Counted from the first letter of the stretch, positions 3,198-15,305 are shown. The stretch: DNA of 21,412 nucleotides from a virus (IMGVR_UViG_3300015202_000003:1-21412); one strand, 5' to 3'. The notes: generated by a model not told the origin, from the sequence alone. Program-made: numbers and translations.

Positions 3198-3815
3198 ATG
3201 ATTACTACAACAAAAAAGCGGGAGATGGCTGATTATTATTTGAAAGGTTTCTCCCTTACAGAAACAGCTAAGGAATTTGGAATTAATTCAGCAACTGTTC
3301 ACAATATTCTCAAAAAGTTAGGGATACCCCGAAGAACTGTGTCAGAGGGAAATTCTCTAAAATGGTTGAATTCTGATTTTCGTGATAATCAGGTAGATAA
3401 GAGGGTTGGAGTTTCATCAGGGGCTAAAGGTAAAAGTTGGAAATTAAAACATAGGAAATACTCCCCAAAAATGATAGGTGCAGGTAATCCTCAATGGAAA
3501 GGTGGGGTTACTAAACTAAGTTCTTTAATTAGATCTTTACCAGAATATATATTGTGGAGAGAAAAAATATTTAAGAGGGATAATTGGACTTGTCAAATCT
3601 GTTCTGATAGAACTTGCGTAGGTAATAAAGTTATTCTTCATGCTGATCATATTTACCCACTTCATAAATTAATTGAGGAGAACCAGATTAAATCCGTTCT
3701 AGAAGCTATTTTATGTGAACATCTATGGGAAATAGATAACGGAAGATGTCTTTGTATAGATTGCCATAAAAAGACAGATACTTTTGGGAAAAATGCTAAA
3801 AAGCTTTCGATATAG
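3198..3815 (+). CDS. HNH endonuclease with N-terminal HTH and NUMOD3-like motif
   Basis: HTH (SLTETAKEFGINSATVHNIL), GNPQWKGG, CQIC, HADHI, NGRCLCIDCH. Alternative GTG start at 3195. Confidence 0.88.
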   Translation: MITTTKKREMADYYLKGFSLTETAKEFGINSATVHNILKKLGIPRRTVSEGNSLKWLNSDFRDNQVDKRVGVSSGAKGKSWKLKHRKYSPKMIGAGNPQWKGGVTKLSSLIRSLPEYILWREKIFKRDNWTCQICSDRTCVGNKVILHADHIYPLHKLIEENQIKSVLEAILCEHLWEIDNGRCLCIDCHKKTDTFGKNAKKLSI

Positions 3816-4905
3816 GATATACCCAAATAAAATACAACAAGATACGCTAAACAAAACGTTTGGGTGTTCTCGTTTCATTTATAACTGGGGCCTATCTCTT
3901 AAAATAAGCAGTTATATGAATACTGGTAAAGGATTGTCACGGTTTGCTCTTGACAAAGACCTTCCTAAATTAAAAGCAGAAAACCCTTGGCTTTCGGAAG
4001 TTCCTTCCCAAGTTTTACAACAAAGTTTGGTTGACCTCGATAAAGCCTTCACTAACTTTTTTAGAAAAACTACCAAATTTCCAAACTTTAAGAAAAAAAG
4101 AACAGATGCGTCTTGTAGATTTCCACAGGGTATCAAGGTTGATTTTGAAACTAACATAATATCTTTACCCAAACTGGGAAAAGTAAAAATTAAACTTAGT
4201 CGTAAATTTGTAGGCACAATTAAATCTTGCACAGTATCAAGAGGTTCTACTGGAAAGTTCTACGTATCAATTTTAGTAGATGATGGGGTCGGAGAAATTC
4301 CGAAACTTCCAATTCACCAAGACAGAGCAATTGGTGTTGATGTGGGACTTATTGATTTTATTACGACCTCTAAGGGAGAGAAAGTTAAAGCTCCTAAGTT
4401 TTATCGCGGTTTAGAAACTAAACTCAAGGAGGCCCAAAGGTTTGAGTCGAGAAAGAAGAAAGGTAGTAACAACAGAAAAAAAGCGAGACAAAGAGTAAAC
4501 CTTATTCACGAAAAGATTAAGAATTTAAGGTCTGATTTCCTTCATAAAACAAGCACTCGATTAGTTAATGAAAACCAAGTTATTTGTATCGAGGATTTAA
4601 ATGTGAAAGGAATGATGAAGAACCGAAAATTGTCTAAGAGTATCGGAGATGTGGGTTGGTCTGAATTTTTTAGGATGTTGGAATACAAATCTGAAAAAGT
4701 TGGAAAAACAGTTTTGAAGATTAATCGTTTTCAACCGAGTTCAAAAATATGTTCTTGTGGGGAAGTTAACAAAATCCTGACTCTTTCTGATAGAAAATGG
4801 ACTTGTTCTAATTGTAATTTGACTCACGATAGAGATGTATTAGCAGCACAAAATATTCTCAAGTTCGCTTTTTTAGAAAATTTAACGCGCAGGGACACTG
4901 CGTAG
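3793..4905 (+). CDS. tnpB: RNA-guided endonuclease TnpB
   Basis: N-terminal FRYRIYPN...FGCSRFIYN, RuvC-I GVDVG, RuvC-II IEDL, zinc finger CSCG/CSNC, RuvC-III DRDVLAAQN. The three acidic catalytic residues are intact. ATG at 3793 overlaps the HNH gene by 23 nt. Confidence 0.96.
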   Translation: MLKSFRYRIYPNKIQQDTLNKTFGCSRFIYNWGLSLKISSYMNTGKGLSRFALDKDLPKLKAENPWLSEVPSQVLQQSLVDLDKAFTNFFRKTTKFPNFKKKRTDASCRFPQGIKVDFETNIISLPKLGKVKIKLSRKFVGTIKSCTVSRGSTGKFYVSILVDDGVGEIPKLPIHQDRAIGVDVGLIDFITTSKGEKVKAPKFYRGLETKLKEAQRFESRKKKGSNNRKKARQRVNLIHEKIKNLRSDFLHKTSTRLVNENQVICIEDLNVKGMMKNRKLSKSIGDVGWSEFFRMLEYKSEKVGKTVLKINRFQPSSKICSCGEVNKILTLSDRKWTCSNCNLTHDRDVLAAQNILKFAFLENLTRRDTA

Positions 4906-5009
4906 CTCGTGGAGAGATTGTCAGACTTTTTTCGGAAAGCATATCTCAGTGAAGCAAGAATCCTGCTGCTTTAGCAGTGGGAGTGTCAAAAGGCAATGGA
5001 CGGCAGTAT
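4870..5009 (+). ncRNA. TnpB omega-RNA (reRNA): scaffold to 4989, guide from 4990 (AAGGCAATGGACGGCAGTAT); 5' end approximate
   Basis: TnpB guide RNAs are known to derive from the right end, overlap the tnpB 3' end and use the flank as guide. Scaffold is identical at 1-99. Confidence 0.75.
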
Positions 5010-5396: not shown

Positions 5397-5616
5397 AAGT
5401 TTGTAAAATTATGTTAGATATGTCTGAGGCAATAAAAACACACAATAGACAAATCACTTAAAGACCTTAAAAGCGGGTTAATTTACGTTGAAAGAAAGAA
5501 ATGCAATAGCGAAACAGGGGGCAACTTAAAAATTTGTGTAAGAACAGCGCAAAGGTTCGTTTTTCTCTTTCCTTATTTAGGACAAACTATTTGGAAATTC
5601 TATAAATTATTTTCTT

Positions 5617-6703
5617 CAGCATCCCCTTTAGCGTAACGGAACGCGCTTGAACGGCAAGCGTATGTATCAGGGAGGGCGCCCTGTGCGCCCCTGTTGAAAC
5701 ACCATGCAAAACACACACTCCGAAATCAAGGCCCAAATCAAGATCATCATGGCTCGCCAGACGGCGCTGACGCTTGACCCGCAAAGCCTCGCGCCACGCG
5801 GTTCGTTCTATCTTTTCACCGACGAGGCTCGCTCCCAGATGTGCGCGATTCGAGGCGAGGCCCGCCCGCTTTACGAGCGACTTTCGCGCGGCGATTTTCT
5901 TCGCGCTTAAACCTGACGGAAAACATTGTGACACAAACCAAACTACTCGCCTTTCATGGCGACCCGGCTATCAAAGCCAAATACGTTTCGCGACTGCGCG
6001 CCCATCATGCGCAAGACCAAATTGTTCAGGGCTTTTATTGTGTTGGCGACCCTGAGAAGGGCACGTTTCGCGGATGTGCAGTCGGCTGCACTCTTAACGG
6101 TAGTGATCACAGTGCCTATCCTGACGAAATTGGCTATCCCACCGTGCTGGCTCACTTGGAGGACTCAATTTTTGAGGGATTGCCCGCGTCCGAGGCGCCG
6201 CAGTTTGCGGTAGATTTTCTTGACGTGGTGGCACCGCGCGCCGACCTGTCTCTCGTGTGGCCTCACTTCGCGCTGTGGATGCTATCTGACAAAAAACACG
6301 GCGTGCTACGCTTGGCAAATGAGGGCACCCGCCCCTCTATTGAAGGAGTGATTGCGCTTTTTCGTCGCGTTGTGGAGGGGGAGGTTGTTCACGGGTATGA
6401 GTGGCAAAATGCTGCTTCCTTCGCCTCTGCCACCGCCTACGCCACCGCCCGACGCGAAGACACCGCCGCCAACCTTGCCTTCACCGCTCACGCCACTGCC
6501 TTTTCCTCTGTCTACGCCTACGCCGATTTCGCCGCTCCCGCCTCCGCTCACGCTGCCACCGCCGACGCTGCTTTCGCCGCCTACGCCACCGCCCACTTCG
6601 CCGAAGACACCGCCGCTGCCGTTGCCCGCGCTCGCTCCGCCTACGCCCGCTCCCGTCAGAGACAAGCGTCGCAGCTGCTGCAATTTCTAAGGACGGCTCC
6701 TGT
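5617..6703. other. GC-rich horizontally acquired island (boundaries approximate)
   Basis: Abrupt shift from AT-rich sequence to roughly 55-60% GC by eye and back, with C/G-ending codons. Confidence 0.85.
5704..5910 (+). CDS. Small hypothetical protein in the GC island
   Basis: 68 aa, GC-type codon usage, ends 17 nt before the next start. Confidence 0.55.
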   Translation: MQNTHSEIKAQIKIIMARQTALTLDPQSLAPRGSFYLFTDEARSQMCAIRGEARPLYERLSRGDFLRA

Positions 6704-6719
6704 GTGTTTAGAATTTTAA
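5928..6719 (+). CDS. Phage hypothetical protein with Ala-rich low-complexity C-terminal region
   Basis: Likely GTG start at 5928 after GGA. AFHGDPAIK, GCAVGC, LEDSIFEGLP and ADLSLVW resemble a recurrent phage family; Ala/Thr/Tyr repeats at ~6411-6655. Confidence 0.8.
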   Translation: MTQTKLLAFHGDPAIKAKYVSRLRAHHAQDQIVQGFYCVGDPEKGTFRGCAVGCTLNGSDHSAYPDEIGYPTVLAHLEDSIFEGLPASEAPQFAVDFLDVVAPRADLSLVWPHFALWMLSDKKHGVLRLANEGTRPSIEGVIALFRRVVEGEVVHGYEWQNAASFASATAYATARREDTAANLAFTAHATAFSSVYAYADFAAPASAHAATADAAFAAYATAHFAEDTAAAVARARSAYARSRQRQASQLLQFLRTAPVCLEF

Positions 6720-6753
6720 AGGAAACTTTTTTTAAATTTTAATTTTAGTTATT

Positions 6754-6796
6754 AAAAAAACAAAGAATCTTCGTTCTTAGTTTTTTGTCTCATAAT
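6754..6796 (+). promoter_or_regulatory. TCTTCG-loop hairpin followed 17 nt later by CATAAT (putative promoter)
   Basis: Loop at 6768-6773, CATAAT at 6791-6796, ATG at 6799. Same spacing at 19218-19246 (TATAAA). Confidence 0.5.
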
Positions 6797-8460: not shown

Positions 8461-9060
8461 ATGACGGAAAATAATAGTTTTTTAAAGGTGATAGGAATAT
8501 TTGGCTTCTGTAATTCTGGTAAAGACGAAAGTTTTTTGCAAATCCAACGCATACTTTACGAAGCTAAAAAAATAAGAGTTCATAGAATCGCTTTAGCGGA
8601 CGAATTAAAAAGAGAGTTTTGTTTAGAGACTGGTTTAGAATTTGAAGAGTTAGAAAAAAACAAAAATTCATACAGAGTTGAACTTCAAAAATTAGCAGAT
8701 TTAAGAAAAAAAGAAAACTCGAATTACTGGGTAGATAAAACCTATGAAAAATTAAATTTTCTTTGTGTTCCCAACCAAGAAAACTATTTTGTGTTTACGG
8801 ATGTTAGATATAAAAACGAATATAATTTTTTAAAATCTGTTTCTCTCAACACAAAATTTGTTAGAATACATAGACCTTCTTCTAAACCTTTTAATTCTCA
8901 TTCAAGTGAAACAGAATGGGCTTATCTCCCTGTAGACTACATATTAGACAATTATAAAGATAAACCTCATCTTTACGGAGAATGGCAAAAAGTTCTTTTT
9001 TATTTCGAGTGGTTGAGAAACAGTTTTTCTATTGTGAAAACAAAGAACGAAGATTCTTAG
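8461..9060 (+). CDS. Deoxynucleoside monophosphate kinase (T4 gp1-like P-loop kinase)
   Basis: IGIFGFCNSGKD P-loop, ALADELK, TDVRYKNE and HSSE motifs. Confidence 0.85.
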   Translation: MTENNSFLKVIGIFGFCNSGKDESFLQIQRILYEAKKIRVHRIALADELKREFCLETGLEFEELEKNKNSYRVELQKLADLRKKENSNYWVDKTYEKLNFLCVPNQENYFVFTDVRYKNEYNFLKSVSLNTKFVRIHRPSSKPFNSHSSETEWAYLPVDYILDNYKDKPHLYGEWQKVLFYFEWLRNSFSIVKTKNEDS

Positions 9061-9144
9061 TTTTTTAATTAAAATGAAAAAAGCAATTTTTTGGTTTGTG
9101 AAAGGTTTGAAAATTTAGGTGTTAAAGAGATTTCTAAACGGGCT

Positions 9145-9238
9145 GTAGGTGTTTAATTACATGACGTTGAATACCTCGTTGCGGGAATCCCCGCCACGGA
9201 TTAGCGCAGTAGGTGTTTAATTACATGACGTTGAATAG
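9145..9238 (+). CRISPR. CRISPR mini-array: two 30-bp repeats and one 34-bp spacer, no cas genes in window
   Basis: GTAGGTGTTTAATTACATGACGTTGAATA(C/G) at 9145-9174 and 9209-9238. Spacer 9175-9208 is CTCGTTGCGGGAATCCCCGCCACGGATTAGCGCA. The 3' end resembles the ATTGAAAC/G handle of class 1 repeats. Confidence 0.8.
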
Positions 9239-9342
9239 ACCCACAGATTTTCTTATAACTGAAGTTAAAAAAACTAAGAATCTTCGTTCTTAGTTCTAAG
9301 TCTTTAAATCAACTTCTTAAAAAGAGAGGGGGTTGGTAAAAA

Positions 9343-9552: not shown

Positions 9553-9604
9553 CAGTTATTAAATAAACCAAGAAACTTTTCCTCTCTTCAAAACGTATGA
9601 ATAA
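9553..9604 (+). promoter_or_regulatory. Putative promoter upstream of tRNA-Arg
   Basis: Matches 2725-2775 at both ends (CAGTTATTAAA and CGTATGAATAA). Confidence 0.5.
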
Positions 9605-9718
9605 TCGGAGGCTTTCCAAGAAGGGTTTAAATTTCATAGGGGGGAGATGCGCCCGATGTCGGACGTTTGTTTCTCCTATTTGACTTATAATTTAAATTTT
9701 CTTTGGACTGCCTATTTT

Positions 9719-9790
9719 GGCCTGTTAGCCTAACGGATAAGGCGACAAACTTCTAATTTGTTGATAGAGGTTCGATTCCTCTACGGGCTA
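9719..9790 (+). tRNA. tRNA-Arg(UCU), CCA not encoded
   Basis: Acceptor GGCCTGT/ACGGGCT, D stem GCCT/AGGC, anticodon arm ACAAA-CTTCTAA-TTTGT, T arm AGAGG-TTCGATT-CCTCT. Confidence 0.95.
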
Positions 9791-9992
9791 TTGAAAAACT
9801 TAGTGGCAAAGAGATGTATTTAGCATCGTCCTATCTTTTCGGGTTTAACCTTCAACTTTTAGTCTGAAACGGAAAAGATAAGTTTTTCTTCTTTTAAAAC
9901 CAAACCTAAATAAAAAATTTGATACTTTATAACAAAGGGATAAAAGACGGGGAAGATTCTATGTTTATCTTTTACTCTTTTTTTCAAACACC

Positions 9993-13507: not shown

Positions 13508-13885
13508 AAAAATATTTCTTCTTTTATAATTTTAGGTAGGGGTGAGAGATCACAGGGTTCGGTTACGGAAGCCTATGGAGAGGCGGGAAGAGGGGTTTAT
13601 TGTTGGATAGAACCTAACTCTTAATGAAAAAATACTGTGCTTCTCAAGGACAGAGAGTTGTTTATTTTACTCTGAATTTTCTGTTTACGTTGTTCTACAT
13701 AGCGGTGCGGGAATCCCGGCTTCAAAGCAGGCTATTATTAGAGGTTTAGATGGGGTTCAAGATATAACAGCAATCGAAATATAAATTAAATTAGAATCTT
13801 TGTTTTTTGTTTCAATTTATTTTTATATCTCTGTTATTTTTTTTAGTTGCTTTTTAAGATTTCCAATTTTTGTAAACTGTTTTAA

Positions 13886-15231: not shown

Positions 15232-15305
15232 CGAGGAGGAGCCATTTGGTTAAGGGCAAAAAGCTTATAACTTTTCATAAACTGATTCGATTTCAGTCTC
15301 CTCGA
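15232..15305 (+). tRNA. tRNA-Ile(UAU), atypical
   Basis: Acceptor CGAGGAG/CTCCTCG, D stem GCC/GGC, anticodon arm AAAAG-CTTATAA-CTTTT, T arm ACTGA-TTCGATT-TCAGT. G at position 8 and an A-T pair closing the T loop are non-canonical. Confidence 0.8.

Follow-up and report, generated by a model that had tools for sequence, protein, structure and literature searches.

A CRISPR-like repeat-spacer-repeat unit of tentative identity in the genome of a large singleton phage

Introduction

Phages carry mini-arrays devoid of cas genes, solitary CRISPR-type repeats and CRISPR RNA (crRNA)-like RNAs, all of which make use of the Cas proteins of the host (PMC10651486; bioRxiv 10.1101/2024.10.29.618823; see also the review PMC11656645). 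Specifically, solitary repeat RNA anti-CRISPRs (Racr) and viral crRNA-like RNAs are defined by their similarity to the host CRISPR repeat in both sequence and structure; a promoter is usually present within ~250 bp, and there is often an anti-CRISPR (acr) gene in the neighbourhood or sequence matching a cas promoter, a toxin promoter or a rival element (PMC10651486; 10.1101/2024.10.29.618823). Here we describe a repeat-spacer-repeat unit in the window IMGVR_UViG_3300015202_000003:1-21412 (the whole stretch of DNA analysed, 21,412 nucleotides (nt) in length), which covers the initial 21.4 kb of an IMG/VR virus record that is 198,095 bp long and an estimated 88% complete. The unit resembles Racr and viral mini-arrays in being a small, self-standing phage locus between genes that is cas-less and non-coding and combines one or two repeats of CRISPR size with an insert the size of a spacer. 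It differs from them in that the searches run here recovered no related repeat, promoter, acr-like neighbour or target, and the traits by which Racr and crRNA-like RNAs are recognized are not found at this unit.

Two-repeat candidates reported by array finders are usually regarded as unreliable when neither a known repeat nor cas genes accompany them. The unit shares with such low-evidence candidates its two repeats, its single spacer, the lack of cas genes and the lack of a known repeat family; it differs from them in the exact identity and canonical length of its repeats, its intergenic, non-coding position and the foreign composition of its spacer. Typical false positives of array finders are coding tandem repeats, and the unit is not one of these. 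We tentatively regard the core as a CRISPR-type unit, a possible identity that represents the single most likely mechanism, with the non-CRISPR alternatives together being more likely. This identity is drawn from geometry and composition and is not established; the original prediction for this DNA, which had presented the locus as a CRISPR mini-array in what may be an exchangeable or invertible cassette, overstates what can be read from it.

A two-repeat unit with CRISPR-type geometry

The two repeats (Table 1) are identical over 29 nt and differ solely in their last base, which is C in the first repeat (R1) and G in the second (R2). They enclose a spacer in which 22 of the 34 bases are G or C, in a genome with a GC content of 32.8%, and all of these elements lie exactly where the original prediction had placed them. 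No such repeat pair emerged in 100 shuffles of the window. The similarity between R1 and R2 reaches 3 nt further upstream with one mismatch (32 nt at 97% identity), and the 30/34/30 layout may also be read as 32/32/32; formally, it amounts to 1.47 copies of a 64-nt period. If a CRISPR array is taken to require at least two direct repeats, each 23-47 nt long, with unique spacers of comparable length between them, the unit shows this geometry at the minimum copy number of two. The repeat pair occurs once in the 198,095-bp record and is its sole intergenic, non-tandem local direct repeat of at least 18 nt, the other local exact repeats in this size range being coding-domain repeats or tandem arrays. 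All six reading frames are closed across the unit, which is non-coding.

Table 1 Features of the repeat-spacer-repeat locus and its immediate surroundings (positions are those of the window).
Feature	Position	Strand	Description
Deoxynucleoside monophosphate (dNMP) kinase-like gene	8461..9060	+	Pfam PF04275/PF21448; phrog_139 deoxynucleoside monophosphate kinase, 1.5e-25
Left arm	9039..9066	+	Hairpin-family copy F9045, apex GAACGAAGATTC, then T6; alone -6.0 kcal/mol
AT-rich leader-like stretch	9067..9144	+	78 nt; contains a 14-codon open reading frame (ORF) and the partial repeat
Repeat 1 (R1)	9145..9174	+	30 nt; fold -9.8 kcal/mol, z -3.0
Spacer	9175..9208	+	34 nt; 65% GC; internal GC hairpin
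Repeat 2 (R2)	9209..9238	+	30 nt; final base G, not C
Trailer	9239..9267	+	29 nt; weak TATAAC/TATAAG box on either strand
Right arm	9268..9295	-	Hairpin-family copy R9278, apex GAATCTTCGTTC on + strand; alone -9.4 (-) and -8.9 (+) kcal/mol

Two further elements that had been noticed earlier are also present. The GCGGG/CCCGC hairpin of the spacer folds at -13.7 kcal/mol (z -1.9), with 12 of 200 shuffles folding equally well. The partial repeat TAGGTGTTAAA lies at 9116-9126, 30 nt upstream, and its significance is marginal (P ~0.05), given that an 8-mer shared with the repeat is found in ~5% of random 78-nt windows of the genome.

Several traits besides the layout argue for a CRISPR-type unit. 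The lone variant falls on the final position of the distal repeat, a 78-nt AT-rich stretch lies ahead of R1 and right after a terminator-like hairpin, the repeat is partly palindromic and folds on the + strand only, which carries nearly all genes, and the spacer has 65% GC as opposed to 33% in the genome. A single Cas1-Cas2 integration is expected to leave a short foreign insert between two exact 30-nt copies, and we know of no other common mechanism that yields such a duplication so neatly. Overall, the geometry perhaps favours CRISPR ~5-10 fold over unconstrained duplications.

If the core is of the CRISPR type, a single spacer integration into a solitary repeat would have generated the exact 30-nt duplication around a 34-nt insert of foreign composition. 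The unit would then be read on the + strand as a small RNA, which a nuclease of the host, either Cas6-type or an effector, may cut within the repeats and which may be taken up by Cas proteins of the host. There it would serve as a guide that targets a GC-rich rival element, or else as a crRNA-like RNA with a decoy or regulatory role. With their T-runs, the two flanking arms would likely keep read-through of the kinase gene from entering the unit on the left, and antisense transcription from entering it on the right.

The leader-like stretch has features of its own. A 14-codon ORF (MKKAIFWFVKGLKI) occupies 9075-9118, directly 3' of the left hairpin; the start context of its ATG at 9075 ranks at the 74th percentile of the true gene starts of the phage and within the top 1.6% of other ATGs. 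The stretches 9107-9131 and 9791-9815 resemble each other over 25 nt without belonging to a family. Analysis of k-mer enrichment over intergenic regions revealed no shared promoter motif in the leader, yielding only the hairpin apex and TATAATA, both outside it.

Searches for relatives of the repeat and spacer

The searches with the repeat and the spacer demanded near-identity (exact words or three mismatches), such that a diverged family, or the arrays of an unsampled host, could escape them. Their results, along with several properties of the unit itself, weigh against CRISPR identity. No repeat match was found among the Rfam CRISPR-DR families, even at E<=10 on the short stretch, and a repeat 20-mer produced one chance match in 185,579 GTDB species genomes, located in a Cytobacillus gene region with no array. 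A pattern of 21 specified bases fixing both stem halves had no match in the 241 million records of the JGI metagenomes, IMG/VR contained neither a 22-mer nor a 19-mer of the repeat, and blastn against INPHARED and PLSDB returned only single chance-level matches inside genes. At three mismatches, the repeat pattern occurred in none of the 401 Bacillota genomes, in which a control pattern gave 8 chance hits. Host and subtype, which the original prediction had hoped to read from arrays or metagenomes sharing the repeat, did not emerge: within exact-word and 3-mismatch reach, the repeat matches no CRISPR array in GTDB, JGI, IMG/VR, INPHARED, PLSDB or the 401 Bacillota genomes. A literature search for the repeat sequence returned no papers.

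The spacer likewise led to no target. Its exact 19-28-mers are absent from IMG/VR and the JGI metagenomes, mismatched targets not having been searched at scale, and blastn against cultured phages gave only matches with E>=4. No acr-like family was detected among the neighbour proteins, and a scan of 9060-9145 identified no sigma-70-like promoter in the leader. The unit has only two repeats, and with 65% GC its spacer would stand out even if this were a genuine phage mini-array of an AT-rich system. In addition, the composition of the repeat is that of the phage itself, and the repeat resembles phage gene starts slightly above shuffles (P ~0.07-0.10). Neither the extension of the R1 hairpin into the spacer nor the possible pairing between the outer flanks is predicted by CRISPR. 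The negative searches weigh roughly 2-3 fold against a CRISPR-type unit by each estimate made, and the spacer composition and the start-like, phage-typical repeat do so as well. What stands of the mini-array originally proposed is its geometry, every membership search run (repeat family, protospacer and acr neighbour) having been negative.

Self-targeting was considered and rejected: even with up to 10 mismatches allowed, the spacer does not recur in the phage, and the occurrences of its GC-rich 11-12-mers at 13706, 41215 and 52001 are isolated ones.

A GC-rich island and the origin of the spacer

An island of 1.1 kb (~5500-6750) with 51-58% GC lies 2.4 kb upstream of the unit in this 33% GC phage. 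Its ORF (5841-6719) encodes an Ala-rich protein of 292 amino acids, the relatives of which, 81% identical at best, occur among the early genes of ~60% GC phage contigs; the spacer, for which an origin among relatives of the island was considered, was not found in two such contigs. No direct or junction repeats were found flanking the island, and a copy of the hairpin family to which the arms belong (see below) follows it at 6759. Judging by this composition and these relatives, the AT-rich phage has demonstrably received DNA from GC-rich phages in recent times, and a GC-rich source of the spacer, or a remnant of a GC-rich gene in its place, is plausible for this reason. A GC-rich target of the spacer is plausible as well. 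The island supports both CRISPR-type acquisition and the scar of a foreign gene considered below, and separates the two poorly.

A fuller version of the CRISPR-type scenario, which we consider improbable, can be envisioned. The unit would be a genuine one-spacer unit of an undescribed repeat family, in which a host adaptation complex inserted the spacer of a GC-rich rival into a solitary repeat of the phage, the rival coming from the same pool that donated the unameliorated 58% GC gene, and the product would have been kept as a terminator-insulated gene for a guide or decoy RNA. In a bolder variant, the repeat would double as a stop-Shine-Dalgarno (SD)-start junction, with each new spacer making a new micro-ORF. 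A true crRNA-like gene at this locus would mark an undescribed CRISPR repeat family, give initial access to the host and rivals of this singleton 198-kb phage, and provide a case in which a phage genome captured a spacer from a competitor rich in GC. Conversely, if the unit is not CRISPR, it offers a caution that CRISPR-like geometry combined with a foreign-looking spacer is insufficient.

Competing explanations for the core

Among the non-CRISPR explanations, the one that survives best, doubtful as it is, holds that the core encodes a structured small RNA, in the form of a ~105-nt + strand transcript (~9140-9243) with a closing stem and three hairpins, two of them formed by the repeats and one by the GC-rich centre. 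The duplicated hairpin would then be a repeated protein-binding or AGGUG-sequestering module. The stretch 9136-9246 folds at -38 kcal/mol (z -3.6, with none of 200 shuffles as good), compared to a z of -1.2 on the - strand, although a palindromic CRISPR repeat would yield similar fold statistics. The R1 hairpin has 11 bp, including three G-U pairs that make it strand-specific, and takes in 2 nt of the spacer. In R2, the hairpin is weak on its own (z -0.4), and a 2-nt bulge restores GG/CC pairing. Outside the repeats, the GGG of 9140-9142 is able to pair with the CCC of 9240-9242, part of the ACCC of the trailer, which would close a four-way junction. The spacer overrun, the R2 bulge and the flank pairing are not predicted by CRISPR, each being weak (roughly P 0.01-0.1). 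A GC-rich stem within an AT-rich genome is typical of structural RNAs, and the setting is suggestive in that terminator-like hairpins stand on both sides in an RNA-rich intergenic stretch (tRNA-Arg, 9718-9791). However, such a fold has no need for exact identity over 29-32 nt that includes the loops, no Rfam family matches it, it has no homologue, and no promoter was found. As for described RNA types, a transfer RNA (tRNA), a tRNA-like remnant or a known RNA family was rejected after ARAGORN and Rfam found nothing in 9030-9300; the GC hairpin of the spacer recalls a T-arm only loosely.

An unlikely explanation, ranking after the structured RNA, is a duplicated gene junction, consisting either of two tandem micro-ORFs or of the scar left by a GC-rich foreign gene that was inserted between junction copies and later mostly deleted. 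Each repeat can be parsed as stops in three frames (TAG, TAA and TGA), AGGTG, 9 nt, and an ATG with four codons. The resulting micro-ORFs (9161-9220, 19 amino acids; 9225-9293, 22 amino acids) both open with MTLN, the first stopping on a TAA within R2 and the second on a TAG within the right hairpin, just as the kinase gene stops within the left one. Alignments of the repeat to the 186 gene-start windows of the phage are better than those to random windows (Mann-Whitney P 9e-10), and in 9 of the 26 good alignments the ATG of the repeat falls on an ATG, the phage start pattern being AGG.. TTTAA.TTA .. ATG; similar starts occur at genome positions 46452, 178539, 194818 and 41566. When compared with shuffled repeats, however, this start-likeness becomes marginal (P 0.07-0.10), a fixed-position start matrix puts both ATGs at only the 3rd percentile of true starts, and the AGGTG is buried in the repeat hairpin. 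A GC-rich foreign gene in the shared block of small genes, 2.4 kb upstream, is consistent with a scar, but that island is devoid of junction repeats at its borders, and the CRISPR-like 30/34 spacing would have to be a coincidence.

It is quite improbable that the repeats act at the DNA level as two protein-binding sites of the operator, origin or partition type (perhaps three with 9116-9126), 64 bp apart or about six helical turns. Their exact identity, their intergenic position between transcription units and the third partial copy (TAGGTGTTAAA, 30 nt upstream) point in this direction. Nevertheless, only two sites are full, 30 bp is long for an operator, the third copy is marginal (P ~0.05), no evident DNA-binding gene adjoins the unit, the window contains no shift in GC skew, and the GC-rich centre is left unexplained. 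Least probable of all is that the 1.47 copies of the 64-nt period represent 1.5 copies of a tandem unit serving as an RNA mimic (for example, a type III antitoxin-like decoy, as in phage phiTE, in which 1.5 pseudo-ToxI repeats reportedly mimic such an antitoxin) or a neutral duplication without function, given that known type III antitoxin repeats measure 34-45 nt and have no unrelated spacer, that no toxin partner is known here, and that neat bracketing and a centre of foreign composition are unexpected for a neutral duplication.

The flanking arms belong to a genome-wide hairpin family

Large lytic phages carry dispersed families of intergenic stem-loops, including intrinsic terminators and T4-type promoter-stem-loop cassettes. 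The arms on both sides of the unit belong to a family that is similar to these in being dispersed and almost always intergenic, with an invariant apex, covarying stems and flanking A- and T-runs; the comparison covers the arms only and not the repeat-spacer-repeat core. The perfect 24-bp inverted repeats of the original prediction do exist, 9043-9066 and 9268-9291 being exact reverse complements over 24 nt, and the match lengthens to 28 nt at 96% (9039-9066/9268-9295). They do not form a bracket specific to this locus and are instead two members of a family of 35 copies, defined genome-wide by the 12-nt apex GAATCTTCGTTC or its complement at no more than one mismatch. Of these copies, 33 are intergenic, and those within the window lie at 2116, 6765, 9045, 9278, 19215 and 19534.

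Once the family is aligned, its apex is invariant, and its outer stem varies in sequence yet stays paired: 81% of the alignment cells are paired, compared to 46-56% with partners slid, and 64 changes are double-sided, where shuffles give 25.5 and none of 500 attains the observed number. In most copies, the stem is preceded by an A-run and followed by a T-run. The stem variant of the arms recurs at 6759. The near-perfect inverted repeat is explained by the pairing of two palindromic hairpin copies that have the same stem and asymmetric loops in opposite orientations, and the arms are ordinary members of the family rather than part of the machinery of the unit. More generally, this cautions that 'perfect inverted repeats' can correspond to two opposite copies of a palindromic hairpin that occurs throughout a genome.

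With a conserved stem-loop followed by a T-run at gene boundaries, the arms have the characteristics of an intrinsic-terminator-like family; a consensus terminator scan overlooks them because their stems are AU-rich. The + strand of the right arm reads as A7 and then the hairpin, and its - strand as the hairpin and then T7, such that the T6 of the left arm and the T7 of the right arm both point toward the unit. The left arm may thus be an intrinsic-terminator-like element for rightward transcription leaving the kinase gene, and the right arm a similar element for leftward transcription entering from the right. If the hairpin family does terminate transcription, the arms would likely block transcription entering the unit from both sides. 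Nine copies of the family are in the opposite orientation, four of them no more than 320 nt from a normally oriented copy. The rarer orientation also occurs between + strand genes, and the strand was accordingly not assigned from hairpin orientation.

The proposal of an exchangeable or invertible cassette gained no support and was rejected. The arms are two of 35 family copies and each folds alone, the neighbour annotation includes no recombinase or transposase beside the unit, and the bases outside the arms are not duplicated, leaving no target-site duplication.

Cas genes and TnpB paralogues

All 195 ORFs of at least 100 amino acids were scanned against PADLOC, and Cas6 was searched separately in six frames. 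No Cas protein was identified among the 195 ORFs other than three TnpB/Cas12f-like paralogues, nor was Cas6 found in the six frames. The locus is thus cas-less, as originally described, with the exception of these paralogues, which show no link to the repeat. The three tnpB genes (genome positions 3784-4905, 107870-109030 and 192496-193680) are diverged, with phmmer E values of 1e-85 and 1e-69 against the copy in the window, and carry the PADLOC labels Cas12f, Cas12u and 'Csx1'. The last of these was rejected as a phage Csx1, the hit being TnpB itself.

Arrays linked to TnpB, or intermediates between transposons and CRISPR, have in common with this phage that TnpB/Cas12f-like proteins are encoded. 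They differ from the locus described here, in which the nuclease gene is not adjacent and the repeat is unrelated to the guide scaffold. Specifically, the tnpB gene nearest to the unit has its end at 4905, 4.2 kb upstream and with several unrelated genes in between. When the repeat is aligned locally with the 3' regions of all three tnpB copies and with a stand-alone scaffold, the scores of 14-16 do not exceed the random-window median of 16. An array linked to TnpB and omega-RNA (type V-U or transposon-CRISPR intermediate) was rejected on the basis of this distance, the divergence of the paralogues and the lack of repeat similarity to their 3' regions.

Two 99-nt exact repeat runs, among the longest of the genome, occupy 1-99 and 4891-4989 of the window, the latter corresponding to the right end of the tnpB element. 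The two may be mutual copies, although they were not paired computationally; if 1-99 does copy 4891-4989, the contig may start inside another copy of the tnpB-element end.

Genome setting

Nearly all genes of the record are on the + strand, and the major capsid protein that it encodes belongs to the T4 gp23 type (PF07068). The nearest cultured relatives are large Listeria and Bacillus phages, with an identity of only 39-42%, and the best relative overall is a 4.1-kb contig with a major capsid protein that is 69% identical. Close relatives were found through neither the dNMP-kinase-like protein, the DUF6847 protein nor the major capsid protein, and the flanking proteins used as queries retrieve only themselves. 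By these sequence comparisons, the phage is a singleton. The final codons and TAG stop of the kinase gene sit within the left hairpin.

The tRNA gene nearest to the repeat-spacer locus, tRNA-Arg(TCT) at 9718-9791, lies 480 nt downstream of it, and a second one, tRNA-Ile(TAT), is present at 15232-15305. Just 5' of tRNA-Arg, the stretch 9600-9715 has elevated GC and is self-complementary, with arms at 9609-9633 and 9689-9713. Genome-wide, many gene starts have in common an unusual region composed of an AGG-type motif, followed by TTTAAATTAAAA and then by ATG; the spacing between the AGG-type motif and the ATG is 11-14 nt, above the usual, and an SD-like motif is absent from many genes. Finally, an intergenic tandem array with a 28-nt period, ~4.3 copies and a unit that begins with GAAATAGAGATTTAAAATTT is located outside the window, at genome positions 62079-62198.

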